Below are positions 2,639-62,529 of a DNA stretch of 64,000 nucleotides, piece after piece. The notes below the pieces were generated by a model that worked only from the letters and a program-made list of their open reading frames with translations, was not told where the DNA came from and did no database searches. The stretch is from Eledone cirrhosa (lineage: Eukaryota). Each line of letters begins with the position of its first letter. Positions within the stretch are counted from its first letter, which is position 1. The stretch is taken from assembly GCA_964016885.1 (NCBI GenBank), contig OZ024744.1, forward strand, positions 74,772,001-74,836,000, read 5' to 3'. The position numbers were made by a program, and so were the translations under genes.

Positions 2639-3290
<652 letters not shown>

Positions 3291-4344: not shown

Positions 4345-5458
4345 AAAAAAAGAATTTTAATATCTATAAATTAAAAAAATTTTGGCATGTGAAGGGTAAG
4401 GCAAAAATATAGGGGGGGGGGAATAAATGACATAGGAAAAGGTTTAAATATAAGGGGAGATGAGGGAGAAAGAGAATACAAGAGTACAGAACGTGGATTC
4501 AGCAGGTAAAAAAAACCGTAGTGGAAGTAAAGAACAGGAAAGGAGTTCAAGGTGGTTGAGTTATCATAGGAATGTTAATCCAGTTACAGATCAGATGTGA
4601 TTTCAGATGAGGACAACATCTGAAGATCTCGGTCTTTGAGTTCAGGCAAGCAGAAGTGGTTTTCAAGTTTAGCAAAATCCTATATTTTTCTGTGGTACAC
4701 AAATAACAATTTTTTGTGCCCCTTTGGTACTCCCTCGAATGGTCTAAAATAGAACAATCGATAGAGTACGGGATGTTTTTATCCTTGAATTCCCACACCT
4801 TACTTGCGAGGGCCGTTGCTGTTCGTTTATCGGAGTGCTTAAAAGAAGCGACATGTGCATAAAACCTATCCTGGGTGATGCCAACATATCGCTCACTCCT
4901 GGCTGGCCGGTTGTTGATTAAAGGTGTCACTTTAGCCTCATAAACAACAGATTTGGTGTTACATTTGCCCTGTAATGGGCATTCGTCCGGCTTCCTGCAA
5001 CTCCCTCCTGGATTTGTTCTCGTATGATTTGAATTAGTGATCTTGGACTTCATTGATGGGCAACAGGACTAACTGATCTTAACTACATTTCTATTAAATA
5101 TCTTAAAATATCTATGGTTAGGAGGAAAATGTTTATCTAAGAGTTCAAGGAATTTCCTTCCTACATTAGTTTTGAAAGTTAGAGAGAAGGGGGGTGTAAA
5201 CCAACTAATTTTTCTTTTCCTATTATTGTGGTTAGTTTTAGGGAGGGAGTAGGTAAATAATAAATACGTTCTGTAAAACCGCTGATTTTAAGGGCTTTAT
5301 TATATTAAGGGGTGGCTTTATTAAAAATGTCTATAGACGAAGATAAGGTAGAAATCCTACGGCTAATGTTGGGAATAAGATTTTTAAAAACTATAGGGTG
5401 ATGGCAAGACTCTTTGTTTATATACCTGAGATTTTCATTAGGTTTATGATAAGGTTTA
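4345..5458 (-). mobile_element. Naiad-type PLE fragment (RT thumb to GIY-YIG), frameshifted
   Basis: YKPYHKPNENLRYINKESCHHP, ISWFTPPFS, CRKPDECPLQGKC, SVVYEA..YVGIT..RFYAH, CYLCTTEK, CCPH. The 5' end lies in (TA)n. Confidence 0.9.

Positions 5459-10552: not shown

Positions 10553-10553
<1 letters not shown>
7925..10553 (-). mobile_element. CR1-group LINE ORF2 (APE C-terminus plus RT), 5'-truncated, with frameshifts
   Basis: LGDFNLP, TRGENVLDL, LSDHNLI (APE); GPDG, YRPVSLTS, QHGFRPGRSC, YLDFAKAFDKVDH, SGVPQGTVLGPLLF, YADD (RT); SRLDYCSQLWSP, SYWERLKELNLYSLERRR. Both ends lie in (TA)n. Confidence 0.93.
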
Positions 10554-10601
<48 letters not shown>

Positions 10602-10602
10602 A

Positions 10603-11312
10603 GTATGTACACGTACATACATATATGTATACATACGTACAGTAGAATGTATATATATACACATACATGCACACATATATATATGTACGTATGGATTCAC
10701 CGAACATTTATTATAACGCTCGGTGTGTTATTAGCTATCGTCAGCAACGTATACCTTCCTGCCAGATTGTTGAACGTATATACTTACCTTATGCATATTA
10801 ACGGCTGAGTAACCCAATTTGCATATCGAGCGGGTTAATCGGCCGGGTGCACGGAAAACGATAAACGGAAAAAATGAAATGAAATGAAATTTCCAACTCT
10901 TAGTACGGCTGTTACTTAAATATAACTATGTACACGTACATGCATATATGTATACAGACGTACAGTAGTACAGTGTTTATATATATATACATACATGCAC
11001 ACATATATATATGTACGTATGGATTCACCGAACATTTATTATAACGCTCGGTGTGTTTGTAAACAAGCATCCCGTATTAAGCCGTAGTGTCTACCAACCA
11101 TCGTTGCTCGTTTGTTCAACACAGACAAAGGAACGCTGTACTAGTTTCAAGCTTATTAGCTATCGTCAGCAATGTATACCTTCTTGCCAATTTGTTGAAC
11201 GTATATACTTACCTTATGCATATTAACGGCTGAGTAGCCCAATTTGCATATCGAGTTTACAAACACACAGAGCGTTATAATAAATGTTCGGTGAATCCAT
11301 ACGTACATATAT
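10603..11312 (-). mobile_element. Non-coding hammerhead element (retrozyme-like): partial tandem monomers plus inverted 5' segment
   Basis: Direct repeats at about 10603-10830 and 10928-11255; 11256-11312 is the reverse complement of about 11006-11064. Confidence 0.75.
11133..11175 (-). ncRNA. Minimal type I hammerhead ribozyme
   Basis: Minus strand ACAUUG-CUGACGA-U AGCU AAUA AGCU U-GAA-ACUAGU-A-CAGCGU. The other repeat copy has ACGUUG, which fully pairs stem I. GUA triplet. Confidence 0.85.
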
Positions 11313-11411: not shown

Positions 11412-11527
<116 letters not shown>

Positions 11528-11576
11528 GTATATATATATATATGTATATATATATATGTATATATATATATGTATA

Positions 11577-11640
<64 letters not shown>

Positions 11641-11697
11641 GATGTATATATATCTATGTATATATATATATATATGTGTATATATATATATATATAT

Positions 11698-13617
11698 AAT
11701 AACGCTCTTTCTAAAGCCGGCTATCCTGATAAAATCAAATATAGTAAAGAAACAAATTCTAGAAAAACTTACAGTAGAATAATTAATCATGATCATTCCA
11801 ATAACTTTAATAAAAGACCTAGATACAAAAACATAATCTGGTATAATGCTCCTTTCTCCATCTCTATTAATAACAATATTCCTAAATTATTCTTTAGTGC
11901 CTTAAATAAATGCTTCCCTCCTTCACATATCTATAGTAAAATATTTAACAAACACACCATAAAATGTTCTTATTCTACATCCTCCAATATTTCCAACATT
12001 ATCTCTAAACACAACAATAAAATACTAAATACTAAATCTCTTCCTTCCAACACTGAATTTCATAATAACAGTAATAGTACTCCCGACGTCATTGTAAACC
12101 CTAGGCTAATTTCTGTAAACCCAAATACAACGTCAAACACAACTTCGCTAAATGTTCATAATCCAACTCTATATCAAGAAACTATTATTCCTATCGCAAA
12201 CAACTTCTCCAATCCAATTCCTTCTATAGATAACACTAGGTCACTCATTAATAATCTCTCTAATTGCAACTGCCCTATTAAAAATAAATGTCCTCTCAAC
12301 AACCATTGTCTTGATAAAAACTTAATTTATGAATGTAAAGTTATAACTAGCACCAATTCCTTCACCTATTTTGGCTCCACTTCCACCTCTTTTAAAGCTC
12401 GTCTCTATAATCATCATTCATCTTTTAAATACAAACTTAAAAGAACCAACACGGCTCTCTCAGAACTCATATGGTCCTTGAAAGACAAAAACATTAAATA
12501 TACCATCTTTTGGAAGAAGGTTTCTTCTGCGTCTTTATACTTGAACAGCTCTATATCTAAAATCTGTAATCTCTGCCTAAATGAAAAATTTACCATTATC
12601 TCTAATCTAGATTCTATAATAAATAGACGTACAGATTTGTTTTCTATCTGCTTGCATAAATTCCATAAGACTTTTCACAAAGTATACAGCTAATATTCAA
12701 TTCTTTATCAATTTAGAATCTTTTCTCAAAGGCACATATACATACACCTCTTTTAAAATATACCCATCTTCCTACCTTACTTCAAAGGGTATTATACACT
12801 CGATAATACTTGTTTACTCATTACCCTCATTCTATCTTCACCTTGTAATATCCTTCGTAACATATACATTTGTTTTTGACGCTAGATTATTCATCCTTAA
12901 TTTATTATATTTTTATCTCCCCATCATCTAACTCATTCTTAATACATATTAACTCTTTCTTCGCACATATTATCAATTCCTTCAATATACAAACCTTAAC
13001 TTCACATTATTTTTCTCAAATCCTTCAATACACAAACCTTAATAATTTTTTCTCTTCGTTAATTTTCAAATTTCCATAATACTTGTAAACATACATACAA
13101 TTTTTTTTTTTTTTTGACGTTAGAATATTCATCCGCAATACATTATTCTTTTCTCTCTATCATCAAACTTTTTAATCTCAATACATATTAACTCCCTCTC
13201 CTTCTTCGTACATATTTTCCCTTCGTTAATTTTCAAATTCTTTTAATTTATACATTATCTTCCAACGGTTTTCAACCTCTCTATGTAAAACAATATATCT
13301 TTTCTCAGTTATAAAAACTATCTCTTTCTCTCTATCACCCAACTCTCCCTCTCCACCTTCACTCTCATCTCCTCCCCTTTTTTACATCCTTTCCACCCCC
13401 CCTCTCTAAACAAAATATTTTCCCAATATCACACATCAATCTAAAATTACTTTTCATATGTTGATTTAAAACTGCACTATCCACAAGTGTTTTTTAGCCT
13501 TCATATCATGTCCTCCTGTTTTATCTGATGAAAACACAAATATTATTGCATGATGATGTTTGTTTTTGAAATGCACATAATAAAATACATGGAACTCCTT
13601 TAACCATCTTTTGATCT
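11698..13617 (+). mobile_element. Naiad-type PLE, 5'-truncated, with open linker plus GIY-YIG ORF and a 3' UTR ending in a hammerhead
   Basis: Open frame to stop at 12693: [72 protein letters not shown]. (TA)n on both flanks. Confidence 0.93.
13517..13587 (+). ncRNA. Type I hammerhead ribozyme at the PLE 3' end
   Basis: UGUUUUAU-CUGAUGA(13525-31)-16-bp stem II with one mismatch and GCAU loop-GAA-AUG CA CAU-A-AUAAAAUA. AUA triplet. Confidence 0.85.
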
Positions 13618-21153: not shown

Positions 21154-21186
<33 letters not shown>

Positions 21187-21424
21187 CAAAATTAAATTAA
21201 GAGTTGTCATGTCTGAGAGACATGCGCCATATCCACTGTAGAATAAGCTCAAAGATTCCAATGAATAGATCCGAGCATTTTATATCAACTAGAAATTGAT
21301 TGACATATATATATATATAAAATAAATACATGGAACAATCACAGGGAATAATTTGTAAAGAATGTAAGCACACATAGCTAGGTAGGTAACTAATTAAAGT
21401 TTAACTAGAACTTCAAATAATTAA

Positions 21425-21518
21425 TCTCCTTTGTACATATTTCTTTAAGTAAGAAATATATTTCACCAATTAATCAGTAAATCACAGTAGTCAAATCCTG
21501 GATGGTCACCAAAGGAGA
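21425..21518 (-). ncRNA. Type I hammerhead with GUGACCA (G3-C8) core
   Basis: UCUCCUUUG-GUGACCA-U CCA..UGG U-GAA-AUAUAUUUCUU ACUUA AAGAAAUAUGU-A-CAAAGGAGA: 9-bp stem I, 11-bp stem III, GUA triplet. Confidence 0.8.
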
Positions 21519-21803
21519 AGAAAATAACTATCTGCGTTTACAAAGCAAATGCAAATCTGTGAATGACTCGAACCACGTGTTGCATTAAAAAAAAAATACT
21601 CACATCGCACAGCGTTATCCCAGTGGCGTGAATAGGATTATCGACAGCTATAAATAGCAGCCGAGTCTATTCAACTGAGTTAGCTCAACAATCAAGGTAT
21701 CTAAAAAAGATATCTATATTTGAAGTTCTAGTTAAACTTTAATTAGTTACCTATGTGTGCTTATATTCTTTACAAATTATTCCCTGTGATTGTTCCATGT
21801 ATT

Positions 21804-21890
<87 letters not shown>

Positions 21891-22169
21891 AATCTATTTC
21901 TAGTTGATATAAAATGCTCGGATCTATTCATTGGAATCTTTGAGATTATTCTACGGTGGATATGGCGCATGTCTCTCAGATATGACAACCCTTAATTTAA
22001 TTTTGTTGAGCTAACACAGTTGAATAGACTCGGCTGCTATTTCTAGCTGTCGATAATCCTATTCACGCCACTGGGATGACGCTGTGCGATGTGTGTATTT
22101 TTTTAAAATGCAACACGTGGTTCGAATCATTCTCAGATTTACATTTGCTTTGTAAACGCAGATAGTTAT

Positions 22170-22265
22170 TTTTACTTTGGTGACCATCCAGGATTTGACT
22201 ACTGTGATTTACTGATTAATTGGTGAAATATATTTCTTACTTAAAGAAATATATAAAAAAGAAGA
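22170..22265 (+). ncRNA. Second GUGACCA-core hammerhead copy, stem I decayed
   Basis: GTGACCA at 22180-86 and TGGTGAAA at 22221-28, with the same stem III. Confidence 0.65.
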
Positions 22266-22418
22266 TTAATCATTTTAAAAGGTATCTATATTTGAAGTTC
22301 TAGTTAAATTTTAATTAGTTACCTACCTAGCTATGTGTGCTTACATTCTTTACAAATTATTCCCTGTGATTGTGCCATGTATTTATTTTATATATATATA
22401 TGTCAATCTATTTCTAGT

Positions 22419-22496
<78 letters not shown>

Positions 22497-22555
22497 CATA
22501 AATATATATATATATTATATACATAAATATATATATATATATATTATATACATAA

Positions 22556-22588
<33 letters not shown>

Positions 22589-22589
22589 A

Positions 22590-23225
22590 TAGTAAAACAC
22601 TGGAGGTTTATATCCGTAGTAGTAGAACACTCAGTCCATTTGACGAGTTTGGTAGAAGTAGTATCAAAACAGTTAGTTCACCATACCGTGAACAAATGTT
22701 TCACCTTGCGGATCTTCAGCTCGGTCTGAGTGTGGTTGTACGGAAAAGGAAAAACAACTGCATGCGCAGAAACGGTCACTTCTCCCAGGCGATATGATCC
22801 CACAGTCGAAAATTGTCAGGGAGATAACTGCGAATGTCCGGAATAAATTATTCGAATTGATTAGAATATTAGAATGTTGAGTTTATTCAATCCGGAGCTT
22901 TGTAATTATGCAAGAGGTGTTTTCAAACATGTGTACAACGTGACAGAAGCTAATTCCTTGAATTTATGCAATCGCTATTGAGTAATCTCTTCAGAATATT
23001 GAATCTTTCTTCAATACACAGTCCACAAAACGGATTGCCCCTTGCGTATGGCTTGGACTTAGTGATAGCTTTCCATTGAATGGAGTAGTCTACGCCTGAG
23101 TCTTTGAGGGACCATACGTGGCTCGCGAGTTTCATGGAAGATCGTTTGTCTGGATATCTAAAGATCGACTGATGGTTCAGGAAGCGTTCCTTAAACCGGC
23201 CCTCCGCCATACCTTCATATTCTTA
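22590..23225 (-). mobile_element. Naiad-type PLE 3' fragment (GIY-YIG C-half with stops, plus 3' UTR)
   Basis: AEGRFKERFLNHQSIF..LASHVWSLKD..IQWK..CGLCIEER. The 3' end lies in (TA)n. Confidence 0.85.
22685..22725 (-). ncRNA. Minimal type I hammerhead
   Basis: ACCGAG-CUGAAGA-U CC GCAA GG U-GAA-AC AUUU GU-U-CACGGU, with one stem I mismatch. Confidence 0.75.
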
Positions 23226-23493
23226 GCGCAAGAGTATCCTAGTTTCACCCTGTGTCTTTAACAGCACTCCAAAGGAGAACATGGTTTACATACATAAAAA
23301 TGAGTTCACATTTTCGTTTATCGCTTTCTCTCTCTCTTTCCTTGGTGGGTTTGAAATAAAAGTTGGGTTGTTGCTTGTTACCGTCTAACAGGTGTTGACT
23401 ATAACTTCAGTAGTGGTAGTAGCAGTGGGAGGAGAACTTGGTTTATAAGTCGGCTCGTTCCCTGTTCTTGTCCGACTGGTGTTGACCACAACT

Positions 23494-23570
23494 GAAGAAG
23501 AAGAAGAAGAAGAAGAAGAAGAAGAAGAAGAAGAAGAAGAAGAAGAAGAAGAAGAAGAAGAAGAAGAAGA
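23494..23570. repeat. (GAA)n microsatellite
   Basis: Direct reading. Confidence 0.95.
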
Positions 23571-23574
23571 AAAA

Positions 23575-23880
23575 CTTACCAACAAGCAATACAACTATAT
23601 AATTGACTTCAAAAGCAAATCCATCCTTAATTACGGTATTCCTAAGATACTCAAAAGTGAAAAAAATGTAAGGCATGCAAGGGAGCCACAGATATATTCA
23701 TTAATATCCCCTCACTTTATGACCTAAAATTAAGACCTATAATAGCAGGCCCCTCTTGTGGAACCCACTGCTTCGGCAATTTTTTTGATATCCTATTAAA
23801 AACATTCATTAAACACATTTAAAGTTACATAAGGGACGTCTTTAATATGCTCAGCCACCTCCTCAAAACACTTAGTGATA
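23575..23880 (+). mobile_element. PLE reverse transcriptase N-terminal fragment
   Basis: YGIPKILKS, then frameshifted LKLRPIIAGPSCGTH..FDILLKTFIKHI*SYIRD, matching the PLE YGLPKIHK/LRPIV/SYIRD motifs. Confidence 0.75.
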
Positions 23881-24414
23881 CAGTATATATATATATATAT
23901 TCATCTTGAAAGGATGAAAGTTAACTTCTACAAGATTTGAACACAGAGTGCAAAGAATCAGAACAAATACCGTGACATCTAACGACTGTACCAATTTGCT
24001 GCCCGAATGAAGAAAGAAGAAGGGTGTATGAAGAAAACTGGAACAAAGAATGAATAAATAAACAAATAAATTAATTGAAAACAAGATGGATGTCCTAAAA
24101 ATAATGAGGAGCAAAATAAGAAGGGAAACGAGGAAGTAACAAGTGAGTCAACTAATCAATCAAAGAAAAAGGTAAAAAAAAAAGAAGAGAAAGAAAAAGA
24201 AAGAAAAATAATTAATTAATAAAGTAATCAATGATTGATTGATAGCTAGGATGAAAGTAAGAATGAATATAGAGAATATACACACTGGAAAAATAAAAAT
24301 AAATAAAAAGATTGAAAGAAAGCGACAAAAGAAGAAAGCAAATAAGATGCATACATAAATGTAAGAAACAAAATGTAAAAATAGATTAAAAGAAAAAGAC
24401 AGAAGGTAAGAAAG

Positions 24415-25605
24415 GAAAGAAGGAAAGAGGTAGGAGTGAAAGAGTGAAAGAAGGTAAGGAAGAAAGAGGTAGGAGTGAAAGAGTGAAAGAAGGTAAGAAG
24501 GAAAGAGGTAGGAGTGAAAGGGTGAAAGAAGGTAAGAAGGAAAGAGGTAGGAGTGAAAGGGTGAAAGAAGGTAAGGAGGAAAGAGGTAGGAGTGAAAGAG
24601 TGAAAGAAGGTAAGAAGGAAAGAGGTAGGAGTGAAAGGGTGAAAGAAGGTAAGGAGGAAAGAGGTAGGAGTGAAAGAGTGAAAGAAGGTAAGGAGGAAAG
24701 AGGTAGGAGTGAAAGAGTGAAAGAAGGTAAGGAGGAAAGAAGTAGGAGTGAAAGAGTGAAAGAAGGTAAGAAGGAAAGAGGTAGGAGTGAAAGAGTGAAA
24801 GAAGGTAAGGAGGAAAGAGGTAGGAGTGAAAGAGTGAAAGAAGTTAAGAAGGAAAGAGGTAGGAGTGAAAGAGTGAAAGAAGGTAAGGAGGAAAGAGGTA
24901 GGAGTGAAAGAGTGAAAGAAGTTAAGAAGGAAAGAGGTAGGAGTGAAAGGGTGAAAGAAGGTAAGGAGGAAAGAGGTAGGAATGAAAGAGTGAAAGAAGG
25001 TAAGAAGGAAAGAGGTAGGAGTGAAAGGGTGAAAGAAGGTAAGGAGGAAAGAGGTAGGAGTGAAAGAGTGAAAGAAGGTAAGGAGGAAAGAGGTAGGAGT
25101 GAAATAGTGAAAGAAGGTAAGAAGGAAAGAGGTAGGAGTGAAAGAGTGAAAGAAGGTAAGGAGGAAAGAGGTAGGAGTGAAAGAGTGAAAGAAGTTAAGA
25201 AGGAAAGAGGTAGGAGTGAAAGAGTGAAAGAAGGTAAGGAGGAAAGAGGTAGGAGTGAAAGAGTGAAAGAAGGTAAGAATGAAAGAGGTAGGAGTGAAAG
25301 AGTGAAAGAAGGTAAGAAGGAAAGAGGTAGGAGTGAAAGATTGAAAGAAGGTAAGAAGGAAAGAGGTAGGAGTGAAAGAGTGAAAGAAGGTAAGGAGGAA
25401 AGAGGTAGGAGTGAAAGAGTGAAATAAGGTAAGGAGGAAAGAGGTAGGAGTGAAAGAGTGAAATAAGGTAAGGAGGAAAGAGGTAGGAGTGAAAGAGTGA
25501 AAGAAGGTAAGGAGGAAAGAGGTAGGAGTGAAAGGGTGAAAGAAGGTAAGGAGGTAAGGAGGAAAGAGGTAGGAGTGAAAGGGTGAAAGAAGGTAAGAAG
25601 GAAAA
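24415..25605. repeat. 39-bp purine-rich minisatellite, about 30 copies
   Basis: Unit GAAAGAGGTAGGAGTGAAAGAGTGAAAGAAGGTAAGRAG; 13-aa periodicity in the ORF track. Confidence 0.95.
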
Positions 25606-26367
25606 GAGGGAGCGTGAAGGATGTTAAGGAGGAAATCAGCAAACAAGCAATAGTGAATAGAAATAAATAGATGAACAAACATAGGTCTTGTCCGGTACAA
25701 AAAGCATAGATATATATGTAAATAACGTAGAGAAAGAGTGTGTATACACAGATGAATTAACAACAGCAACAAGAACAACCACAACAACAACGACAACAAC
25801 AACTTGCTCCACATCTCATCTTACATACTACTATTCCGCTAACAACATCACTACTATTTACTTTTAGTATGACCACAATGAACCAACGAGGCGACATCTA
25901 CGTGGCCATTCCAACTGATAGAAATAACATTGGAAAACCCCAACAAAACTCAATCTATCAATTTAAATAAGAAAAGAGAAAAAAAGCCAATCCTATCCAA
26001 TCCGATCAAATCAAATTCAGGGCCTTCTTACTCATGTTGGAGGAATCGCTCCCTGGTTTTGGTCCATGTAAGTGGTGTAGCGTTTGGCCATTTGCGGGTT
26101 GGTGAAGGTATTTAACCCAAAGTTGGGGTGGATGGTTGTTGATTTTGAGTTCATTAATTCTTTAAACAGCTCTTGTTTATTTTGGGGGAAATGGGGGAGG
26201 GTGGCGCTCGGCTTCCACTTAACTTTCTCACCTGTCCAGGGTCTGCTGGGAGAACCGATTTAATCGCACACCGCTTGACCTGAAACAGGTTGTACTGTGT
26301 TACATGGTACCAGTAGCCGGCAGAACACTGACCTGATCTGAAACAGTATATATATATATATATATAT

Positions 26368-26513
26368 ATAACGAAGGAAGTGTGGTAAGGAACCAGATGG
26401 ACCATAACGCACCATAGTACTCAATACTTAGGGTAGTAGAGTGGGTAATAGGAACATGTTTAACCTCGACGGCAGAGCTCAATCCATTTCGATGGCTATT
26501 TCTGGACTGAGAA
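26368..26513 (-). mobile_element. 5'-truncated copy of the 47.0-47.25 kb hammerhead element
   Basis: Matches 47044-47185, retains only GAAA-stem III-GUC, and is TA-flanked. Confidence 0.75.
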
Positions 26514-26896
26514 ATATATATATATGTGTGTGTGTAAAAGGTAAACAGAAATAACAACACAATCGGTACAGTATATGGAAGGGATATATTAGCTTAACGC
26601 TTGATATAGCAGGAAGAGTGGTTGAAATGCATTTGCCTAAACCTGAACATAGGTCGGTTATGTATGGTTAAACGTCAGTCACAACTACAACCACTACACA
26701 AACAGCAGCAGCAACGTCGGTGGTGTTTATGCAATGACCACCGGAACCGAAACCAACACAAAACATGAACTTGTTCATAGATCACTATCACTGAAACTCT
26801 ACCACAGAACCATCGACAGGTATAATAGACCCTCCATAAAAAAAAACTGACATCACACAATCACTAAACAACAGCCATCTTAATTAACAATATTAC

Positions 26897-27362
26897 TTGG
26901 CAGTATCGGTGATGCGTTGGACAACATGCTTTATGACATAGATTTACAGCTTTTTACGATCTGAGTTCATATCATTCCGAGGTTAGCTTTGCCTTTCATT
27001 CTTACGAGTTCGAAAAATAAAGCACCAGTAATACACCGGGTTCGATTTAATCGACTTTTACCTTCCCCAAAATTGTTGGGCTCGTACCTAAATCAGAATA
27101 CATTACCACCACTATCTATCACCTGCAACACAACTAAAACCAACAACCACAACAACTAACAACAGCATTATTACTGGATTGGCAGTATCGGTAGAGGGTC
27201 GGACGCTATGCTTTGACGCATAGAGTTACGGCCTTTTTATGTTCTGAGTTCAGATCCTGCCGAGGTTAACTTTACCTTTCATCCTTACAGTGTCGATACA
27301 ATAAATTACCAGAAACGTACTGGGATAATTGCTGGCCTTGTGCCAAAAGTAGAAACAATTAC
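26897..27362 (+). mobile_element. Two tandem tRNA-derived SINE copies
   Basis: GGCAGTATCGGT..CTGAGTTCA..CCGAGGTTA(A/G)CTTT(G/A)CCTTTCAT at about 26897-27105 and 27175-27362. Confidence 0.75.
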
Positions 27363-27599
27363 TACACTCCTCTCTCACCAGCAATACAACAACCAACACA
27401 ATGTTTAACAACTGCACTACGACGTCCACGTTCCTCTCCACATATAACACTCTACACTTCACCATACTTCCTTCTCACCCACATTTCATCATTACACAAA
27501 AGAAACGGTAAATGGCACAATTAACAATATGGCTATAACGTATAAACTGAAGATAAAGGAATATGATGTTTAATATGTATATATATATATGTATGTTAT

Positions 27600-27992
27600 C
27601 TCTTTCTCTTAATTTCGAGTATTTTTTTGACCGGCCACTTTCCTGCTGGCAAGGTTGTAAAAGAAAAGAAATTGTCATCCCTTGAATCGCAAGAATGTTT
27701 TGCAAATTTTGAAGGTGCCAGCTATCGCAGCCATTTGTAGACTATGAATTAGGGAGCTGCGCTCTTTGTCCGTAAATCCAAATTCAGTCATACTTTGGTC
27801 CAAGTGGGTTGGTATATAACCCGTAGCTCCAATAATGGTGGGTATGAAGCTAAAGGTGTATCTTGGATACTGGATTTGTAAACTCCTCATCAATGGTCCG
27901 TAGATGTCCTCCTCCTGTATTTTTCTGACAACGTTTACATCAAGTGGGCAGCTGATCTCCACAACAGAACACGTTTTCAATGTGTGGTCCCA
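27600..27992 (-). mobile_element. R4/Dong-like non-LTR 3' fragment (restriction-like endonuclease)
   Basis: IWDHTLKTCSVVEISCPLD..YGPL..FIPTIIGATG..LQMAAIAGTFKICKTF. The 5' end abuts (CATA)n on the sense strand. Confidence 0.75.
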
Positions 27993-28076
27993 AATGTATG
28001 TATGTATGTATGTATGTATGTATGTATGTATGTATGTATGTATGTATGTATGTATGTATGTATGCATGTATGTATG

Positions 28077-28690
28077 TTAGGTCACCAGTTGGTGCTACTG
28101 GTAATATGTATCCCAGTACAACCTGTCTCATGGTCGGGTCGTTGGCGACTAAACTGGCAACACCACCAAGGTTTCTTGGTGAGGAGAGTGACTTTGGACA
28201 TCCTGCAGGACTAAAAACAAAACCTGTCAAAGGGCAAAGGACCTCTTAAGAGTCAATGGCCATCCAAAATCACCGGGAGAGATGACCCCTTAGCCTTTGT
28301 CAAGGCAGAATTCTAGGAGAAGGAAAACTCTGATATAACACCTGCAACCCTGATGGTATCCAATAATGTTGACTTGTTCTTCTTTTTGGTAAATATCATC
28401 TTGGTTAAGAGAGTGGGACTGGCTTTGTGCAGTCCCTTTGCTCACTATAAAAGCTTAACGGCACAGGTATTGCTTTATATCTGGAGATCTCTCTGCACTT
28501 GTCGTCACATGGTACAATGGGCCCAGCACTATGTGTCAATAATTGTCACAAGTGTAGTGTTTGTACCAGAGTTTTCAAATCGCTGGCTGGACTAAAAAGT
28601 CACATTCGTTCAGTGCATCGGTAGGGGTTGGTTCTCCTACATGTATATAAAGTAGTGGCCGTACTCGAAAACGAGTTGGCAGCCACCATG
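28077..28690 (+). mobile_element. Bipartite non-autonomous RTE derivative (5' UTR fused to 3' end)
   Basis: RTE 5'-UTR-like TCTAGGAGAAGGAAAACTCTG; 3' end encodes the C2H2 remnant HKCSVCTRVFKSLAGLKSHIRSVHR*; (TATG)n tail. Confidence 0.75.
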
Positions 28691-28757
28691 TATGTATGTA
28701 TGTATGTATGTATGTATGTATGTATGTATGTATGTATGTATGTATGTATGTATGTAT

Positions 28758-29268
28758 GGGCGGAAGAACTCATCGGACTCAACGGCCATCCAAAAGTGTG
28801 TAAATATGTACATACACATGTACCTCGCGGTTAAACCACTGGGAGTGAAGGACCCCTAGCCTTTGTCAGGGCATTCTTCTAGGAGAAGGCAACTCAGGAA
28901 ACTGGGATAACTCCGATATAAAACCCGCGGCTCAGTAGTTAGCGATGATGTTGATCTTTTCTTCTTTTCGGGTTGTAGCTACTGTCGTTCAGAGAGTGGG
29001 ATTGGCTCAGTGCACAGTCTTTCCTCACTTTAAAAATATGCTTCCCGCGCAGGCATTGCACGATAGAATTAATTAATAATTATTAATAATGGTATATCGT
29101 GCAATGGCCATACTCGATAACGAGGGGGCAGCCATCATGTATGCATGTATGTTTGTATGTATCTGTGTATGTTTGTATGTATGTATGTATGTTCAGCGCA
29201 CCGGTAGGGGTTCTCCTACATGGATATAAAGTAGTGGCCGTACTCGAAAACGAGTTGGCAGCCACCAT
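28758..29268 (+). mobile_element. Further RTE-derived copies (28758-29140 and 29191-29268) in TATG arrays
   Basis: Shared CTAGGAGAAGG and GGCC(G/A)TACTCGA..GGCAGCCA(C/T)CATGTATG ends. Confidence 0.72.
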
Positions 29269-29289
29269 GTTTGTATGTATGTATGTATG

Positions 29290-29620
29290 TTCTTCTGGTT
29301 TTATAAATTTCAGAAATTTTTCCCAATAGAGAGAGAGTCGGTTTCTAACATAGACACAAGACTCTCTCATTGGAATTTACACATCAACTAGGTAGATATG
29401 TATGTATGCATGCATGTGTAGATATGGATGTTATTGTATGTGTGGATGTGTATGTTTTGAGTTGTATGAGTGCATGTGTATATGGTTTGTATCTGTACAT
29501 GTGTATCTGCAGTTATTAGATGCAAAATATTTGGAATGTTTTACATATTTTTACTGTTCCATTAATGGATTGAACTTGTAATTTCCTAACTAGTTGTGTT
29601 TGTAATTCCCTAACTAGTTG
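29290..29620 (-). mobile_element. R4/Dong-like 3' fragment
   Basis: QLVRKLQVQSINGTVKICKTFQIFCI* plus a 3' UTR near-identical to 40375-40692; TATG on both flanks. Confidence 0.75.
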
Positions 29621-29847
29621 TATGTATGTATGTGTGTGTGTATGTGTGTATGTATATACGTATGTATGTACGTTTGTATCTACGTATGTACGTACGTCCG
29701 TACGTATGTATATATGTAGATATGTATGTATATGAATGTGTGTGTATGTTTGTATGCATATATATAGTGAGAGATTTATATGTCTACATATAGTATATAT
29801 GTGTGTATGTGTGTGTGTGCGTGTGCATATATATATGTATATATATG

Positions 29848-29898
<51 letters not shown>

Positions 29899-29931
29899 TA
29901 CAAGTAGGCATATATATAAATCTCTCTCTCA

Positions 29932-29963
<32 letters not shown>

Positions 29964-30130
29964 GCATATATGTATATACAAACATATGTATGTATTTTTA
30001 TATACATACATACATATGCGTGCTTATTCGTATGTCACATTTTCTGATGCGAAAGTGCGTCGCTATCTCTTTAAATACAAATATGTATGTATATCTACAA
30101 AGAACGGGACGCACTGTTTGTGTACAAAAG

Positions 30131-30163
<33 letters not shown>

Positions 30164-30201
30164 AAATATGTGTGTGTGTGTGCGTGTGTGTGTGTGTGTG
30201 G

Positions 30202-30233
<32 letters not shown>

Positions 30234-31153
30234 GTGTGTGTGCGCGTGTGCGCGTGCGCGCGTTTGTGTGTGTGTGACTGTTGTGCCTATGCACGCGCGT
30301 GTATGTATTTGTATGTGTTTCTGAGACGACGTCTATGGGCATATGTTTATATATGTGTGTATGGCTATGGGGGTAAAAAGGGGTGACGCCAATCTTTTGT
30401 TTTCTTTTGTATATTTTTGTTTCATTATTTTTTTTTTATCGTTAGTATACTTTCTGGCTGATTTTATAGTTGTTGTTATTTTTCGTTTTGTTTTTGTTCT
30501 AGAGTGTATTTCTTCTATCTGTCTCTCTGTGTGCGTGTGTGTGTGTGTGTGTGTGTATGTGTGTGTGTGTGTGTGTGTGTACATCATGTCTGTACATAGT
30601 GCATTAAAGGCAAAACGAAAACAGCACAAAGAACGTAAACTTGGTATTCGTGATAGTAAGCAAACATTCCCTTAAAGAAGCATCGAACGCTACGATGCTA
30701 GTTGATCACGTATTGTCGGTTAAGGCAGCTGTTTAAAACAGTGTGTTGTGCTTGGAAGACATTTTGGTCACGTTAGACTAGCCGTTTGCATATTCAAAAC
30801 GTGAGGGCCGTCGTTTAATTCGACACAGCGGGCTTTTAACATAGCCACACGGACCCTCACCCTTACCATCACCCTCACATCCACACGTACACATATGCAT
30901 AGACATATGCAGACACGTCATATGTACACACAAACACACGCACACATACATATACAAATATATTTTTATGTGGCCGCTTATATGCTAGACAAAATGTGTG
31001 CGTATAATAAAGTAGTCTATACACAATATATATATTTTATATACATATACATACACACACACACATATATATATATGTGTGTGTGTGTGTATGTATGTGT
31101 GTGTATTTGTGTGTACTTTTGTTTATATATATATATTTGTATTCATATACACA

Positions 31154-31223
<70 letters not shown>

Positions 31224-31309
31224 CTGTTTGTGTGTGTGTATTTGGTATATATACCACATTATTATAAGCACACACGTTGGCTGACATATAAGCGGCCACA
31301 TAAACATAT

Positions 31310-34050
31310 AATCTTTGGATCTGCAACACACACGATTATACATTCTGCCTTCAGGCTTTGTAGGAAGCTCAAGATATATACACGAATTAACACAAGAATT
31401 AATGAGGTATGTTCGAAATCACGGTCGACCAGACCTATTAATCACATTTACATATAAGTGGAAAGAGATTCAAGACGAGTTGCTTCCAGGCCAGACTCAT
31501 CTTCACAGGCATGACCTCATATTTCGAGACTTTCACCTTAAAGTTAAGAAAATTACGTATTTAATCTAAAAGTTGGAAATCTTTGGTATCGTTAGCTGTC
31601 AGCATTGTAGCATTGGATGGCAAAAACGGGTATTGCTTCATGTACACATTCTAATCTGGCTTGCAACGAAAATATACCCGAACCAAATTGACTTTGTAAT
31701 ATCAGCAGAACTTCCTGAAACTAATATAAATAGTGGACATTTTGAAATCGTCAAATCCCATATGGTTCATGGTCCTTGTGACGCTCTTAATTCGACTTCC
31801 ATGAAATGTCAAAACCGTAAATGTGAAGAAAACATCCTAAACCATCCATACAGGAACATAGACTTCTAATGGCGGTTACCGTCGATGAAGCCCAGATGCA
31901 AGAGGTGTCAAAGCCAATATTGGACGATATGAGATTGACAACCGATGGACCGAGCCTACTTGCCCACTCTTTAACAAAGCTTTCGACTCTCATATTAATA
32001 TGGAATATTGCCACTCAGTCAAAGCTATAAAGTATGTGTGCAATACGTCAACAAGGGTTCCGATGCTGCCATGTTTGCGCTACAACAACGAAATATGTCC
32101 GACGAGGTGTCCAACTTCAAACAAGGCTGATATATCAGCAGTAACGAAGCATTGTGAGGCATTTTCTCTACTATACGGACAAATACCATCCTTCTACACC
32201 TTTGATAAACAGAGAGGAAAATGGAAAAGGAAGACCAGTAGAAAATCCATCCTAAAATTCGTAAAGCAGCAACATTAGGTAGAATTTATACAATACATCC
32301 AGGGCAGCACGAATGTTTTCACTTGAGGAGGATGCTTAATGAAGTTAAAGGCCCTGAAGGCTTTGATGAACTTCTTAAAGTAAATGGCGCTCTTTGTAAC
32401 ACCTGAGGCCTGCATTCGGAGAGGTCTGTTGCAAGACGACAATCAATGGGACGCAACACTTGCAGAGGTGTCTCTATCTCGGACAACCAAAAGTATTTGG
32501 AATTTGTTCGCAGTTATATTAAAAAATTGTAACATAGCCAATCTATTGGCACTTTGGTCGACATGTCCGAAGACATCAAACACTAAGCGCAATTGAGAAA
32601 CCCTGGCATAGACATAACCTTTTGAGACGAACATTATAACACAAGTTTGATTGAGATTGAAGACAAGCTGGTGGAAATAGATGGACCTGCCCTGCTTTTA
32701 TTAGGAAATCGTTTCCTATGTTAACGAAAATGAGCCCAAACTACTAGATAATCAAAGATCAGTATATAACGTTATACTCGAGTCAAGTACATTACAGAAT
32801 GGTGGCCTATTTTTTTTATTGATACTCCGGGTGGAACTGGTAGAACCTTCTTGATAAACCTATTGTTGTCTAAAATTCGAGAAGATCAGAAAATATCTTT
32901 AGCGGCTGTTTCTTCTGGAATTACAGCTACACCTTTACCTGGTGGCCAGACAGCTCATTCTGCTTTCAATTTGGACTTGTACCTCAGTTTGAATGAAATG
33001 TCCGTGTGTCATAAATGACTCAGGAGCTCCCCCAAGTGTAGCAAAGATGTATGGCAATTTTTGTGGATAAATACACAATGGCACATTAGCACGGTTAGGA
33101 GGCCTTGGGAGGAACACTGAAAGATCACCGAAACAGCACAACAATCACGGGAGGAATTACTGCCGTTTCATGAGGGGACTTCCGACAATCTTCACCTGTG
33201 ATATTAAAGAAGACTCGTGCCAAACAAGTTCGAGTTTGCCTAAAATTGTCAACTTTATGGCCCCGTATTACCAAACTCAGTTTAAGAGCCAATATGTGAG
33301 CACAACTTCAGGGTAACAGCGTTTTTGCAGAGTTTGCTTAAAGCTTCTGAAAATTGGTGGCAGAAAAATATCCCTTGATACTGATGGATGTTTTGATCCT
33401 TCTTCATTTGTACTGTTGTGGAAAGCGCTGATAGGTTAATTTTAAAAGTTTTCCCCAATTTTGAAATTCCCCATTTAAATGCGGAGTGGCTGTGTGAAAA
33501 AGCTATTGTTACCCCCCCAAAAACATCACAGTGAAGGCCATCAACAAAAATAACTCACAAATGATCCCTGGAGGCAGTCAGACCTACAAATCTATCGAAG
33601 TAGTTGACGAGGACGAAGCTTTTCGTTATCTTGTATTTCTCAGTCTGAAACCGCCAGGTATGACGCCACACAACCTTTAATTGATGGGTTCAGTCAATAT
33701 GCTTCTCAGAAAACTGGATCAGTCAAGATTATGCAATGGCACGCGTATGTTTGTGACTGAACTACAGCCCCACATTATCATAGCCAAAATCCTTACTGGG
33801 TGTTTTATACCTAAAATACCGCTAATACCAACAGATGTCCCCTTTCGTTTAAAACCATTGCAATTCCCAGTGAGTGCCAGTTACACAATGACCATTAACA
33901 AGTCCCTAGGTTAAACACTGCAGATTGTCGGTCTCCATCTAGAAAAGGGCTGTTTCTTACATGGCCAATTGTATGTACATTGATCCAGAGTAGAAAGCCG
34001 CCACAAACATATATGCTCCAAGAAAAATAGTTAACATTGTATATACTGAA
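31310..34050 (+). mobile_element. Degenerate Helitron Rep-Helicase (pseudogene)
   Basis: ILPSGFVGSSRY..GRPDLLITFT, WQKRVLLHVHILIW (HUH), HMVHGPC, SVKAIKYVC, DTPGGTGRTF (Walker A), LPGGQTAHSAF, LCNGTR, QFPV..MTINKS, HGQLYV; many stops and frameshifts. Confidence 0.92.
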
Positions 34051-34649
34051 GTTCTGTAAATATTTTATTATTCTCGCAGAATACATTTTTCCTATTTTCT
34101 TTATTACTTCTTGTATTAAGATATTCTAAATACATTTTTAAATGAAATTTGTTTGTTTGTTCATTTGTTTCTTGCCCGCTAATTACACTATATCTTCAAC
34201 AAAATTAGCAAAGGAAATTGAGCATGTGTACGTTAAAAGTAATTTTCAGGGAAATTCAGCATGAGTAATTTTAAATGTAATTCTAAGGGAGATTCAGCAA
34301 GACACTGTGTTTGACATGGCTGAATATTTCACACAAAGACATGAGGACACGAATGAACACAACATACCTGTCGTACCAAACATACCCCCCCCCTTAGTGA
34401 AGGAAGCAGTCAATAACAACATATAGAGAAGTCTATATAGCCTAAATTAGTAGGAAAGGGACTTCGTATATACTCATGGTTAACAACCTTTTGACATTTA
34501 TCAAGAGAACGTAGAGTGTTTACATACTTAATTATCTACATATCTATATAATATATATACACATATACATGAATATATATTATATACATACATAGTTATT
34601 ATTTACATATATGTAATATATAGACACATGTATACATTATCTATATAAT

Positions 34650-35266
34650 ATTTGCAAACGTCTGTGTATTTTTATGTCTATTCCACAATGCATAATCGTT
34701 TTGAAGAACATTTTCCATCCTCTTTTTCTTCCTTCTTTTCTCTCTCCCACCTCTCTCGTGAAAAATTACCCTTTGTAATACCAAAACAAATGTACGCCAA
34801 TTTCCATGACAGTTCATATTTTTCGGGAATGATCATCTGTTTTCCAAAAGAGTTTAGAATCCTCCTAAAAGATATAGAATCACAATATTGTAAGAACAAA
34901 GTATCAGGTAAATTATTCATGTAAATTTCACTCATTTCGCATTTAATCTACATTTTAGCTTTTAAAAGAAATGCCAAGGAGAAAAGGTTCTGACACCCCA
35001 CAAGCTCTTTAGACTTTGCCACCTTATATAATACTCCAGGGTGGGTAGTTTACAAAGCTTATTTGTGTATCCTCCAAACTAGAAAACAAATGTTTACCCA
35101 GAAGTTCTTAATTTCCTTCAAAATATGTGTGATAGAATTTATGTCCCCATAAAATTGATACATTTTGTATTTTCATTTTTTAAATTATTGTTGTATCATA
35201 ATTTCAGAATTGTCTGGGAATTGAATTTGTAACATCTCAATTTTTAATCCAATTCTTTAAGCCATG

Positions 35267-35316
<50 letters not shown>

Positions 35317-35347
35317 ACCCATCTGGGCAGGTTGAAAAGTTATCTAG
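34650..35347 (+). mobile_element. Probable second, highly decayed Helitron 3' fragment
   Basis: Weak helicase C-terminal similarity; ends with a CCCA..TGGG hairpin and CTAG near 35344. Confidence 0.4.
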
Positions 35348-35765
35348 TAATTAACAGTTCGATTCTTGGACTAAGTTGTGTTCTTGAGAAAAACAGCTCC
35401 TTTCACATTGCTCCAGTATACACATGTGAAAATGAGTACCAGCGATAGCAGGAAATAGGGTGGGGCTTAACCTTTCAATGTACTGGCGTCATATCCAGTG
35501 TATTGTACTCTCAGCCACATAACAGAAACTGGGATAAGCACCGGATACTTGATAAACCTCCAAGATGAGAGAGACTTTACACTTTTTTTTTTCAAAGGGA
35601 ACAATCATTTTACTTCGTAGAATGTATTCCGTGAGCGGGTGCTTATTTTCTAATCCAATGAACAGAGTAATGTATTGGATACGTCAGTCAGTCAAGTTCA
35701 AAATGGCAAACAAACGCAGGAGTAGCGTTATTAGCTTCACGCTTGGTGAGAGTGGAGGGGAGTTG

Positions 35766-35803
35766 TTTACGACGTTACGGACATAAGTCCTTCATCAGGA
35801 AAG
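35766..35803 (-). ncRNA. Degenerate minimal hammerhead (GAAA mutated to GUAA)
   Basis: UUUC-CUGAUGA-A GGAC UUAU GUCC-GUAA-CGUC-GUAAA. Confidence 0.55.
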
Positions 35804-37490
35804 TGTGTGTGTGTGTGGGGGGGGGGGTTTACTCCGATAGGGATTGAAGGAGTTAGCGGGAAAAACATGCTCAGGAAGCTGTGACGATTGAATAAGTTTT
35901 AATATTTAAACATTAGGTGATATATAAAGGAAAGCTGAACTGTTTATCAATATTTAGAGAACGCGAGCTTTGGTTCTAGAGCAATAGATTAGGTTAATTT
36001 AGTCCCACTTCAAACTATGAAAGTTTAATACTTACCAATATTACTGGCTTCTAAATCTAAATTGAGGAGGCTCTGCAAAAACTAGACCTGCGACGAGACA
36101 CTTTCAAATTATTGTGTCATCTAACCTTTTTAGGAATCACTCCACATACTTTTTTTAGTGCCTACAGTTACCTTACAGTGCCTAGAAAAAGGTTGAAGTC
36201 AGGATTGACAAATTTCTAATATAACTGGTTCACTATTCATTTTGACACCTTCTTGCTGAAAATATAACATTTAGCATATAAAGATATGGATAAAGATAAA
36301 TATTCAGAATATTATGATAAAATAATTGACATTTTAAAATAACAACATACTTGATTCGTCGTCGGAACGATATGGATAATGGAAGTGACAGGTTATGTCG
36401 TTCAATAATTGTGAAATAGATATTTAACTTTCAGTATATATAGTGATATGAAGTCTCCTCGTGCAACTAGGTAGTGTGTTTCATTTTAACATAGTCTTTT
36501 ATCGTGTTTGAATGTTTTGTTTATTCGGTGTTCATCTCTAAAATATAAAATGGATTAACTTAACTAGGAAGTTTTAATACGCACACATGATATATATATA
36601 TATATATATATATCATGTGTGCGTATGAAAACCACCTAGGAGTGGAATTATCTAGGATATGAAGTATAAAAATATTGACTCTGTTTATACTGTAGTGTGT
36701 GTTGCTATTTAGACTCAGTACAATAAAGATCTTAGAAGGGAATGATAACCCAATTGCGACCAAGACCATATTTCTTCGACAAATACAGTCTAGGATCACA
36801 AACATTCACCTTAAGCTGTGTGATTTGAAGGACATTTGGCTGTTAATTCAAGAACTTCGAGAAACCACGTAGATGTTCTCAGGTCAATGTATGTCTGCCC
36901 CTCCCTTCCTAACATCTGTACACACCAGAAAGAAACAAAGAAATACCACCCAGAGTATCTATAGAATGTAGGGATATTTTATTTTGTTATGTTATATATA
37001 AACATATGTCAACTATATTTTACAAACAGAAGTTATACAATGATGGAGATTTTTAAGATAAAAACAAAAAGTAATGAAAAAATGGTGGGAAAGAAGGTAG
37101 ATCTGGTTGTAGAGGAAAGGACTATAAAAGTCATAAATGAGAAGGAAAGGAGGGAAAGAGCAAGGACTACAAGACAAAGTAAAAAAGAGAAGAGGAGAGG
37201 ATGATACCCTATGTCTAAGTCGGGGTAGTATATCGCGGCACTTCGCTGCACTTCGCTGCACTTCGCTGCACTTCGCTGAGAAAATTGCAAAGGCATTTAC
37301 GAGGACAAGGGCCAGCAACACCCACTGCAACAGCCACCCCACCTCGCAGGGCTCCTTCCTCTAACAGATTGCTGATGTTCCAATTTTACGTAGGACCTTG
37401 GCTGTAGGGGGTCCAAGGACGGCTGAGCTGTTTACAGTGACCGCTGCAAAGAGGAAGTGGCCGGTCAAGTCCCGTTATTTGCTTGTGTGT

Positions 37491-37526
<36 letters not shown>

Positions 37527-37529
<3 letters not shown>

Positions 37530-38122
37530 TGGTAACATGTAAGCCGGTTGATCCTGTCGCATGGTCGGGTCGTCGATGATTAAAACGGCAATCCCATCAA
37601 GTTTACTTGGTGAGGAGAGTCATTTTGGACACTCTGCAGGACAACAAAGACAAGACCTCACAAAGGGCAGAAGAACTCATAAGAATCAACGGCTATCTCA
37701 AAATATGTATGTACATGTATATATATGTATGTATATATGTATATATGTGTATGCATATGTATATATATATGCGCAGGGACAGAAATAATTGGTCTGGATA
37801 CGCGATCGCGCGGTTAAATCACTGGGAGTGAAGAACCCATAGCTCCTGTCAAGGCATTCTTCTAGGAGAAGGCAACTCAGGAAACTGGGATAACTCCGAA
37901 ATAAAACCTGCGGCTCAGTAGTTACCGATGATGTTGATCTTTTCTTCTTTTCGAGTTATAGCTACTGTCGCTCAGAGAGTGGGATTGGCTCAGTGCACAG
38001 TCTTTCCTTACTTTAAAAAAGAATCTTCATGCCCAGGCATTGCACGATAACATTAATTGATAATTATTAATAAAGGTATATCGTGCGATGGCCATACTCG
38101 ATAACGAGGGGCCAGCCATCAT
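37527..38122 (+). mobile_element. RTE-derived non-autonomous element
   Basis: Colinear with 28077-28300 and 28758-29140. Confidence 0.75.
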
Positions 38123-38575
38123 GTATATATATATATACACATCCTTATAGAACCAAAACTGGATTTTGGTCTTTTTATTTATTATTGCTATATATACACA
38201 GGAGGACAATTTGATACCTTACATTTTAAGGTATCAAATACATTACTCTATTAATTCGATTAGACCCATTCACTGAATACATTCTACGAAGTGAAATGGG
38301 GTGTTTTGCTCAACAACATAACACACAACCACAACCCAGTCCAAGAATCAAACCCATACAATTATATAAGCCCAACATCTTTATATATATATACATATAT
38401 ATACATATGTATATATATATATATACATATGTATATATGTAATAACTAGAAATTGATTAACATATATATAATCACAAGAGATAATTTTTACAAGTGTGTA
38501 ACCACACATAGCTAGGTAGGTAACTAAATAAAGTTGACTAGAACTTCAAAAATAGATACCTTATAATATGATTAA

Positions 38576-38665
38576 TCTTCCCTGTATATATTCCATTAAA
38601 GAAATATATTTCACCAATTAATCGGAAACCTCGGAAGCGGTGACTTGGATTTTCAACAAGGAAAA
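38576..38665 (-). ncRNA. Type I hammerhead with UUGAAAA (U3-A8) core
   Basis: UUUUCCUUG-UUGAAAA-U CCA..UGG U-GAA-AUAUAUUUC UUUAAU GGAAUAUAU-A-CAGGGAAGA. AUA triplet. Confidence 0.78.
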
Positions 38666-39137
38666 AGTACCAGCAATCCGTGCTTACACTTCAAGTTCAA
38701 ACTGCGACTGGCCATCACCACGTGTAGTATTTACTAGAAATACACACATCATAGTAGCTTCGTCCCAGTGGCGTGAATAGGGTTATCGACAACTAGAAAC
38801 AACAGTCGAGTCCTTTCAACAGAGTTAGCTCTACAATTAAGGAGCCGTATTTATATATCTATATCCAAAATTAAGATAAATTAAATAAATTTAATCTAAA
38901 TCAAAATTATGGGTGTCATGCCAGAAAGACATGCGCCATATCACCCGGAAAATAAGCTCTTAGATTCTAACGAGTAGGTCCGAGCATTTTATAATAACTA
39001 GAAATTGATTAACATATATATAAACATGAATAATCACAGGAGATAATGTTTACAAGTGTGTAACCGCACATAGCTAGGTAGGTAACTAAATAAAGTTGAT
39101 TAGAACTTCAAAAATAGATACCTTATAATATGATTAA

Positions 39138-39232
39138 TCTTCCCTGTATATATTCCATTAAAGAAATATATTTCACCAATTAATCGGATGGTAAACCACG
39201 GAAGCGGGGACATGGATTTTCAACAAGGAAGA
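39138..39232 (-). ncRNA. Type I hammerhead with UUGAAAA (U3-A8) core, second monomer
   Basis: Stem I UCUUCCUUG/CAGGGAAGA; same core and stem III as 38576-38665. Confidence 0.8.
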
Positions 39233-39560
39233 AGTTCCAGCAATCCGTGCTTACACTTCAAGTTCAAATCTGCGACTGGCCATCACCACGTGTAGTATTT
39301 ACTAGAAATACACACATCATAGTAGCTTCGTCCCAGTGGCGTGAATAGGGTTATCGACAACTAGAAACAACAGTCGATTCCTTTAATCTAAATCCTTGAT
39401 TTAGATTAAATTCATTTAATTTATCTTAATTTTGGATATAGATATATATGTATATGTATATATATATACATATATATATGTATATATATGCATATATATA
39501 TATACATGTGTATATATATACATATGTATATATATATATATATACATACATATGTACATA

Positions 39561-57500: not shown

Positions 57501-57590
57501 TATTTTTTACACGATTGTATGTAAAATCCCCGGCATGTCTTTGTTTTGTCACCTTTTCTTGTGCGCCCTTGTGGCTAATAAAGAAGTATA
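54560..57590 (+). mobile_element. Tx1/L1-clade LINE, decayed and internally deleted
   Basis: ORF1 tail to about 55420; ORF2 MADLRVGSVNVRGL, AVYAPT, VGDWN, SYLDRFF, YSDH, GSGYWKLN, ADD; ends AATAAA then TATC repeats. Confidence 0.88.
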
Positions 57591-57999
57591 GCTATCTATC
57601 TGTCTGTCTGTATATTTGTATGTCTATTTATCTAACAATATATTTGAATATCTATCTATCTATGTACCTTTTGGATGGACACATGTGTTAAACTTACTCG
57701 GTCATTGTGAACTTTTATTTTTACATCAATTTGTAGAGGGATTGACAGGTCAAATTTTGAGCTGGTCAGTCTCACAAAATATTGTGCCCTTCAGGGCAAA
57801 AGCATCCAACATATTTTCAACAAAATTTTGGAAAACACTTCAATTTAAAAAAATGGCCGAAATGATGGCACTTCTTCCTTGTCAATTCAAGAAGATGGGA
57901 AGGGCCAGCTATGGCTACCTGACCAGCAAATAGTAGCAGACAAGAACAAAGGAATGCCAACACTATCGCCTCAATATTTAGAAGAGGAACAAACTTAGG

Positions 58000-58870: not shown

Positions 58871-58879
58871 ACAAACCAA

Positions 58880-59700: not shown

Positions 59701-59769
59701 AACATCAACACCCCAAACAAAATACAACAACACAAAAACATGCAACATCCACTCTCACACCACCACAGA

Positions 59770-62495: not shown

Positions 62496-62529
62496 TCTAT
62501 CTATCTATGTATATATATGCCAGTCTGTC

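Follow-up and report, generated by a model that had tools for sequence, protein, structure and literature searches.

Homologous hammerhead-like motifs at 21-22 kb and 38-39 kb of a stretch of the Eledone cirrhosa genome raise the question whether the tertiary pair between core positions 3 and 8 of a ribozyme has been rewritten under selection for self-cleavage. The stretch, here called the window, is 64 kb long, lies on contig OZ024744.1 (C28; positions 74,772,001 to 74,836,000) of a 3.0-Gb genome and is rich in (TA)n runs and decayed retroelements. An initial annotation had read the seven nucleotides where CUGANGA is expected as GUGACCA in both 21-22-kb copies and as UUGAAAA in both 38-39-kb copies, and all four cores are present where it had placed them. 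The G2.1-C1.1 end of stem I fixes the register, and therefore GUGACCA is a G3-C8 and UUGAAAA a U3-A8 core. Judging from genome sequence, we are reasonably confident that the motifs belong to a tandem repeat, likely a retrozyme copied by a Penelope-type enzyme, with a hammerhead predicted to cleave itself, and that the C3-G8 pair of this hammerhead gave way on two separate occasions, once to G3-C8 and once to U3-A8. That selection for cleavage is the likeliest cause of the paired core changes seems to us equally well founded.

An exact pattern with positions 3, 7 and 8 left free has 1690 matches in the genome and none in the reversed control, so the motif is not a product of chance; the copy number is a lower bound. 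Positions 3 and 8 change together in these copies, as had been supposed, and form a Watson-Crick pair in 1629 of the 1690 (U3-A8 1410, G3-C8 180, C3-G8 39). The remainder comprises wobbles (U.G 16, G.U 4) and 41 mismatches (C.A 18, U.C 6, A.A 5, G.A 4, C.C 3, U.U 3, C.U 2), all other cells being empty; the small cells were tallied by hand from complete lists and U-A was obtained by subtraction. A looser canonical pattern gives 127 C3-G8 matches and one in its control, adding more divergent subfamilies and a few rows of the Penelope pseudo-LTR (pseudo-long-terminal-repeat) family, so the exact pattern undercounts C3-G8. The four window elements had been taken for one family, which is borne out by the 71-76% identity between the 21-22-kb and 38-39-kb loci (over a 350-500 nt alignment) and by the genomic matches. 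This family has three Watson-Crick cores and not two; the subfamilies that keep the canonical C3-G8 pair, with at most 127 matches, had been overlooked.

The number of independent events behind these counts can be read from a tree. We aligned 220 distinct copies, kept the 154 with homologous flanks and built the tree on 51 rows (10 G3-C8, 14 U3-A8 and 27 C3-G8), leaving out non-paired cores and removing the seven core columns. G3-C8 (support 100/98) and U3-A8 (100/100) each occupy one side of a branch, with C3-G8 lineages between and around them, and a tree holding both as a single clade is rejected (p-AU 0.0096). The two variants thus form distinct clades with their own links to C3-G8 lineages, which leaves two events and not 1600 to be explained. 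The two rewrites of the initial annotation thus exist as core variants but were not swapped into each other, each being a separate departure from C3-G8 lineages. Distant relatives (68 rows, positions 3 and 8 free) include seven C3-G8, one A3.G8, one U3.U8, no G3-C8, no U3-A8 and two probable chance rows, a distribution that favours C3-G8 as the ancestor. Between the G3-C8 majority sequence and the nearest C3-G8 subfamily there are 23 differences in 326 columns, and for U3-A8 the corresponding figure is 50 in 318; if changes were spread evenly, both named sites would be among them with p=0.005 and p=0.024, respectively. Some distant families (L237-L241, e.g. L237:1220-1390 and L240) have the same architecture of canonical core, UCCA-long loop-UGGU, long stem III and NUA, with different stems and A2.1-U1.1 instead of G-C.

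The G3-C8 motif with an intact stem I occupies 21425..21518 (-), with GUGACCA at 21509-21503, G12 at 21464 and the predicted cut after 21434. Its partner at 22171..22264 (+), with position 3 of GUGACCA at 22180 and N17 at 22255, has lost C1.1, and its decayed stem I has a predicted pairing of 0.00. The U3-A8 motifs lie at 39138..39232 (-), with UUGAAAA at 39223-39217, G12 at 39174 and a predicted cut after 39147, and at 38576..38665 (-), with position 3 of UUGAAAA at 38656, N17 at 38585 and a loop II shorter by 5 nt. In all four the 7-mer is followed by UCCA, a 30-36-nt insert, UGGU, GAAA, an 8-10-bp stem III and NUA, which is the order I-core-II-GAAA-III-NUH-I of a three-stem type I hammerhead. 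A common fold with a 9-bp stem I had been described; it holds in three of the copies and fails in the 22180 (+) copy. Of the two cut triplets named, AUA is that of the family and GUA is private to the 21509 copy. An alternative register, in which CUGAUUA or CCGAUUA just 5′ of UGGU-GAAA would be the core, was rejected, as it keeps neither U4 nor positions 3-8 and has no flanking stem I. At 21453-21464 (-) and 39163-39174 (-), G12-A15.1 together with the 5′ strand of stem III forms a perfect 12-nt palindrome, which could allow exchange of stem III between units.

The letters regarded as essential (U4, G5, A6, A9, G12, A13, A14, A15.1-U16.1 and an N17 other than G) are all present, and all four bases occur at position 7, which is known to be free. 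With the whole 7-mer freed there are 1748 matches, and 10 of the first 100 deviate at U4, G5, A6 or A9, scattered and with one off register; with G12, A13 and A14 freed there are 1688, two of the first 100 deviating. Decay of copies once inserted, at about 1-2% per site, would be expected to produce as much. The retention of U4, G5, A6 and A9 claimed for the window copies extends to the genome, where freeing neither those letters nor G12-A14 brings up a large broken-core subfamily. Among seven subfamily majorities, 12-33% apart, invariance is limited to 158 of 328 columns but includes all nine essential letters; by chance this would occur with a probability of 0.48 to the ninth power, or 0.001, in samples that are pattern-selected and in part controlled by the freed-core searches. 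Stem II consists of only three pairs above a U10.1.U11.1 mismatch, found as U.U in 48 of 48 aligned rows in place of the purine-pyrimidine pair usual at 10.1-11.1. By analogy with published hammerheads this is not disqualifying for the class, being a tolerated exception in the text of PMC3088659 and PMC7229834. Of the 292 Rfam matches in the window, the 150 listed include no hammerhead and consist of microsatellite artefacts only, and Rfam finds none in seven loci with canonical cores either. Because canonical-core members are missed too, it is the long loops that its models do not fit.

In the 48-row alignment three of the nine pairs of stem I change on both sides, and stem III is 100% paired with variation by wobble only. 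Over 15 or more pairs, the loop II insert is complementary to the leader that immediately precedes stem I. For the 21509 copy this helix A would join a 5′ leader strand at 21526..21541 (-) to loop II at 21492-21477, with -19.0 kcal/mol. Duplexes within a family average -15 to -22 kcal/mol, against -8 for the G3-C8 leader with U3-A8 loops and -7 to -10 for the reverse combination. The value of the median copy is reached by 0-14 of 500 shuffles in all seven subfamilies, and by 5-9 of 500 in three of five distant single copies, the other two (L237 and L241) being without support. Leader and loop II co-evolve: both partners have changed in six of 15 pairs, and 92% of cells are paired compared with 39-50% when the strands are slid against each other. 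The number of pairs with both-side change did not exceed that of shuffles (10 versus 10.1); the excess over shuffles is confined to paired cells, both-side cells and the covariation score, all three of which are inflated by relatedness. Helix A leaves all hammerhead strands free and can for this reason be modelled as a pseudoknot, which probably props up the weak stem II. Predicted folds also contain a putative helix B, in which the 3′ end of loop II pairs with the tail following stem I, both strands being AU-rich near-palindromes.

The motif is carried by a non-coding unit of 530-570 nt with a GC content of 34%, measuring 567 nt at the 38-39-kb locus. Within the window no open reading frame of 100 or more amino acids lies inside a unit, except one TA-repeat frame across the 22.4-kb end. 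At 177 distinct sampled loci neighbouring motifs are arranged back-to-back in 27 cases, in tandem in 17 and face-to-face in one; tandem spacings are 530-569 nt in 14 of the 17, and the head-to-tail joint is also present in public contigs of one study, four runs that carry no information on expression or on RNA ends. Folded as a circle, one unit is more stable than 30 shuffles (z = -2.7). Behind the predicted cut, 73 of the 220 distinct copies end exactly at +157 (site A) and 39 exactly at +299 (site B), and 133 of 206 ends run into TA-rich sequence. Back-to-back pairs have one end of each kind in 17 of 27 cases and two alike in none. Such an insertion is seen in the window, where the left arm (21186..21697, -) adjoins a short (TA)n/(GA)n run with its 3′ end, likely the fixed end B, and the right arm (21698..22420, +), about 1.3 units long and with its internal TA run enlarged at 21809-21887, stops at site A (+157), where (TA)n follows. 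The tandem insertion of 567-nt units at 38440..39448 (-) lies between (TA)n-rich runs, includes a short inverted piece at 39396-39448 and also ends at site A.

Inverted arms combined with fixed ends are Penelope traits in the text of PMC8557442 and PMC11167929. The repeat is dispersed, of high copy number and accompanied by Penelope elements in the same genome, and it consists of short non-coding head-to-tail units with one type I hammerhead each; by its anatomy, as far as sequence can tell, it is a non-LTR retrozyme. The minimal hammerheads of Penelope pseudo-LTRs were considered as an alternative class and rejected, since a stem III of 8-10 bp is not minimal and an adjoining minimal motif at 22719 belongs to another family; this rejection was made without a genome-wide scan of the flanks for reverse transcriptase (RT) frames. 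According to the proposed mechanism, tandem transcripts would be cut after AUA into monomers that circularise, and at a break in (TA)n a Penelope RT would prime from either of two constant RNA positions, +157 and +299 relative to the cut. Amplification would have favoured master copies that keep a 3-8 pair, and U3-A8 probably arose via a U3.G8 wobble step. Of the 16 U3.G8 copies, six have a loop II of the type lying closest to C3-G8 in the branching order, which fits such an intermediate but could equally reflect back-mutation.

Several observations weigh against this explanation. There are only two independent compensations, and the tree has no true outgroup, so that the case for C3-G8 as ancestor depends on the occurrence of this core at both sides of the tree and on the distant relatives. 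The fourth Watson-Crick version, A3-U8, is absent from the 1690 matches, and 135 of the 177 sampled loci hold a single motif. Stem II is invariant, showing no both-side change in the 48-row alignment, and nested folding assigns it next to no weight in any of the four window copies (probability 0.00-0.01); the same procedure gives a U3-A17 pair a probability of 0.75-0.83 in the U3-A8 copies, a potential trap comparable to the C3-G17 trap discussed in PMC3884650. A C3.A8 mismatch lineage comprises 12 copies at eight loci that share one diagnostic mark, and since these loci have regular A/B ends it moved without a 3-8 pair. A U3.G8 clade of eight copies has also spread. In PMC11167929, hammerhead mutants inserted normally in vitro. 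Selection for cleavage is thus likely but not strict, given that the mismatch lineage still spread. The loci of that lineage, including L118, L129, L136, L139 and L144, offer a natural test of the need for cleavage.

A more far-reaching version, to which we give only tentative credence, is that of an active family exploring three of the four Watson-Crick 3-8 versions, including a G3-C8 clade for which we found no published example, on a new kissing-loop architecture that would enable non-canonical cores. The leader-loop II hairpin would present stem I, core and stem II as one loop, the loop II-tail hairpin would present GAAA, stem III and the cut site as a second, and the ribozyme would assemble by kissing of the two, either inside one unit or across adjacent units of a multimer. 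Somewhat less probable still, and in our view unlikely, is that the fold was kept for a role other than fast cleavage, such as protein binding, ligation or template shaping, with variants that cut poorly or only together with a Penelope protein and a 3-8 pair conserved as structure. The amplified C3.A8 and U3.G8 lineages would be expected in that case, as would the unfavourable look of stem II and of the U3-A17 trap, and the Anolis Penelope hammerhead is described in PMC11167929 as cutting only with protein and as dispensable for insertion in vitro; yet every catalytic letter is fixed across subfamilies 12-33% apart, and the mismatch lineage makes up less than 1% of copies. That the ribozyme is dead in the variant lineages and that the paired changes merely hitchhiked in two master copies, copy number multiplying two accidents, is very improbable: the events number only two, copy counts are pseudo-replicates and transposition may not need cleavage (PMC11167929), but both events changed exactly positions 3 and 8 and both to Watson-Crick pairs (rough joint p about 1e-4 before pairing is required), and the U3-A8 clan later diversified into subfamilies that differ by 22% and keep an intact core and compensated changes in stem I and helix A.

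Elsewhere in the window, a minimal hammerhead with a canonical CUGAAGA core lies at 22686..22725 (-), position 3 being 22719, behind the end of a Penelope-like endonuclease frame. It has a U-CC-loop-GG-U stem II and a 2-bp stem III with a near-palindromic loop, and the 3′ end of the Penelope-like element spans 22600-23260 (-). About 4100 first-look candidates of this type occur genome-wide. It is a different family from the 530-570-nt repeat, and as a separate hammerhead whose core is canonical and whose stem II is likewise U-CC...GG-U, it supports the register of the four motifs. The frame itself (22953..23222, -) is by sequence similarity a broken C-terminal piece of a GIY-YIG-like, Penelope-type endonuclease, an assignment to be taken as a lead: it is 39% identical to window positions 4550-5068, a GIY-YIG match was obtained on 15% of the members of one cluster, and a Pfam search of three endonuclease-like frames gave no match. 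Further Penelope-like RT and GIY-YIG remnants adjoin (TA)n runs at 1167-3077 (-), 4547-5068 (-) and 11494-12693 (+), and hammerhead-like CUGAUGA...GAAAC motifs were seen near Penelope copies at L062:151, L064:1307 and L076:884. The window also contains a purine-rich minisatellite at 24412-25609 (39-bp period, 30 copies, 94% match) and decayed non-LTR retrotransposon frames at 8295-10707 (-), RT-like, and at 55757-63845 (+), endonuclease-like and with several repeated segments.

With this family, evolution has in effect run an experiment on the active site of a ribozyme, in which the putatively ancestral C3-G8, the derived G3-C8 and U3-A8, and wobble and mismatch lineages sit on the same scaffold in one genome, with copy numbers as a rough read-out of their success. 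It bears on the question whether hammerhead cleavage, dispensable for insertion in the in vitro study, is selected in elements mobilised by Penelope. Counts of animal hammerheads are likely too low, because both the usual descriptors and Rfam miss this family: CUGANGA, as the initial annotation foresaw, misses about 94% of pattern-matching copies, and Rfam missed all copies tested.

Natural U3-A8 hammerheads are already known, and an engineered G3-C8 pair is known to work; what appears new here is a natural, fixed G3-C8 clade. We found no published report of a natural G3-C8 hammerhead in a literature search limited to part of the key papers and to their main texts, so that one may stand in the remaining papers or in supplements, and the search on cephalopod hammerheads likewise gave none. 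Comparison with the metazoan non-LTR retrozymes, as presented in PMC7229834 and bioRxiv 10.64898/2026.07.22.740005, shows the same low-GC non-coding tandem units with one type I hammerhead each, beside Penelope elements, and the U.U at the base of helix II is shared with the cleaving axolotl retrozyme HHR_Amex2 (PMC7229834). The likeness is drawn from genome sequence, the circular RNA being a prediction. In contrast to these retrozymes, the unit is 530-570 nt long versus about 170-400, stem III is long and stable versus 1-2 bp, and a loop II of 30-40 nt is paired to the leader, with three core pairs within one family.

In Schistosoma, according to PMC4209133, C3-G8 and U3-A8 likewise occur in related Penelope-linked repeats, with about 1,300 U3-A8 matches there and 1410 here, and U3-A8 covariation within such a family has been published. 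Those are minimal motifs in pseudo-LTRs, whereas the present family has a full three-stem motif in tandem non-coding units, also includes a G3-C8 clade and comes with a tree of the core changes. The natural variants in PMC3088659 resemble our family in U3-A8, U10.1.U11.1, a weak stem II and a pseudoknot, the last described there for the stem I-stem II region of about 40% of hammerheads. Its pseudoknots measure 4-6 bp and helix A at least 15 bp, and the sections of its text that were consulted, figures and supplements apart, do not name G3-C8 as natural. The G3-C8 pair is identical to that of the engineered C3G/G8C hammerheads, in which PMC9901934, PMC11167929 and PMC3884650 report a partial rescue of cleavage; unlike in those laboratory mutants, it has become fixed in nature, in a clade numbering at least 180 copies.

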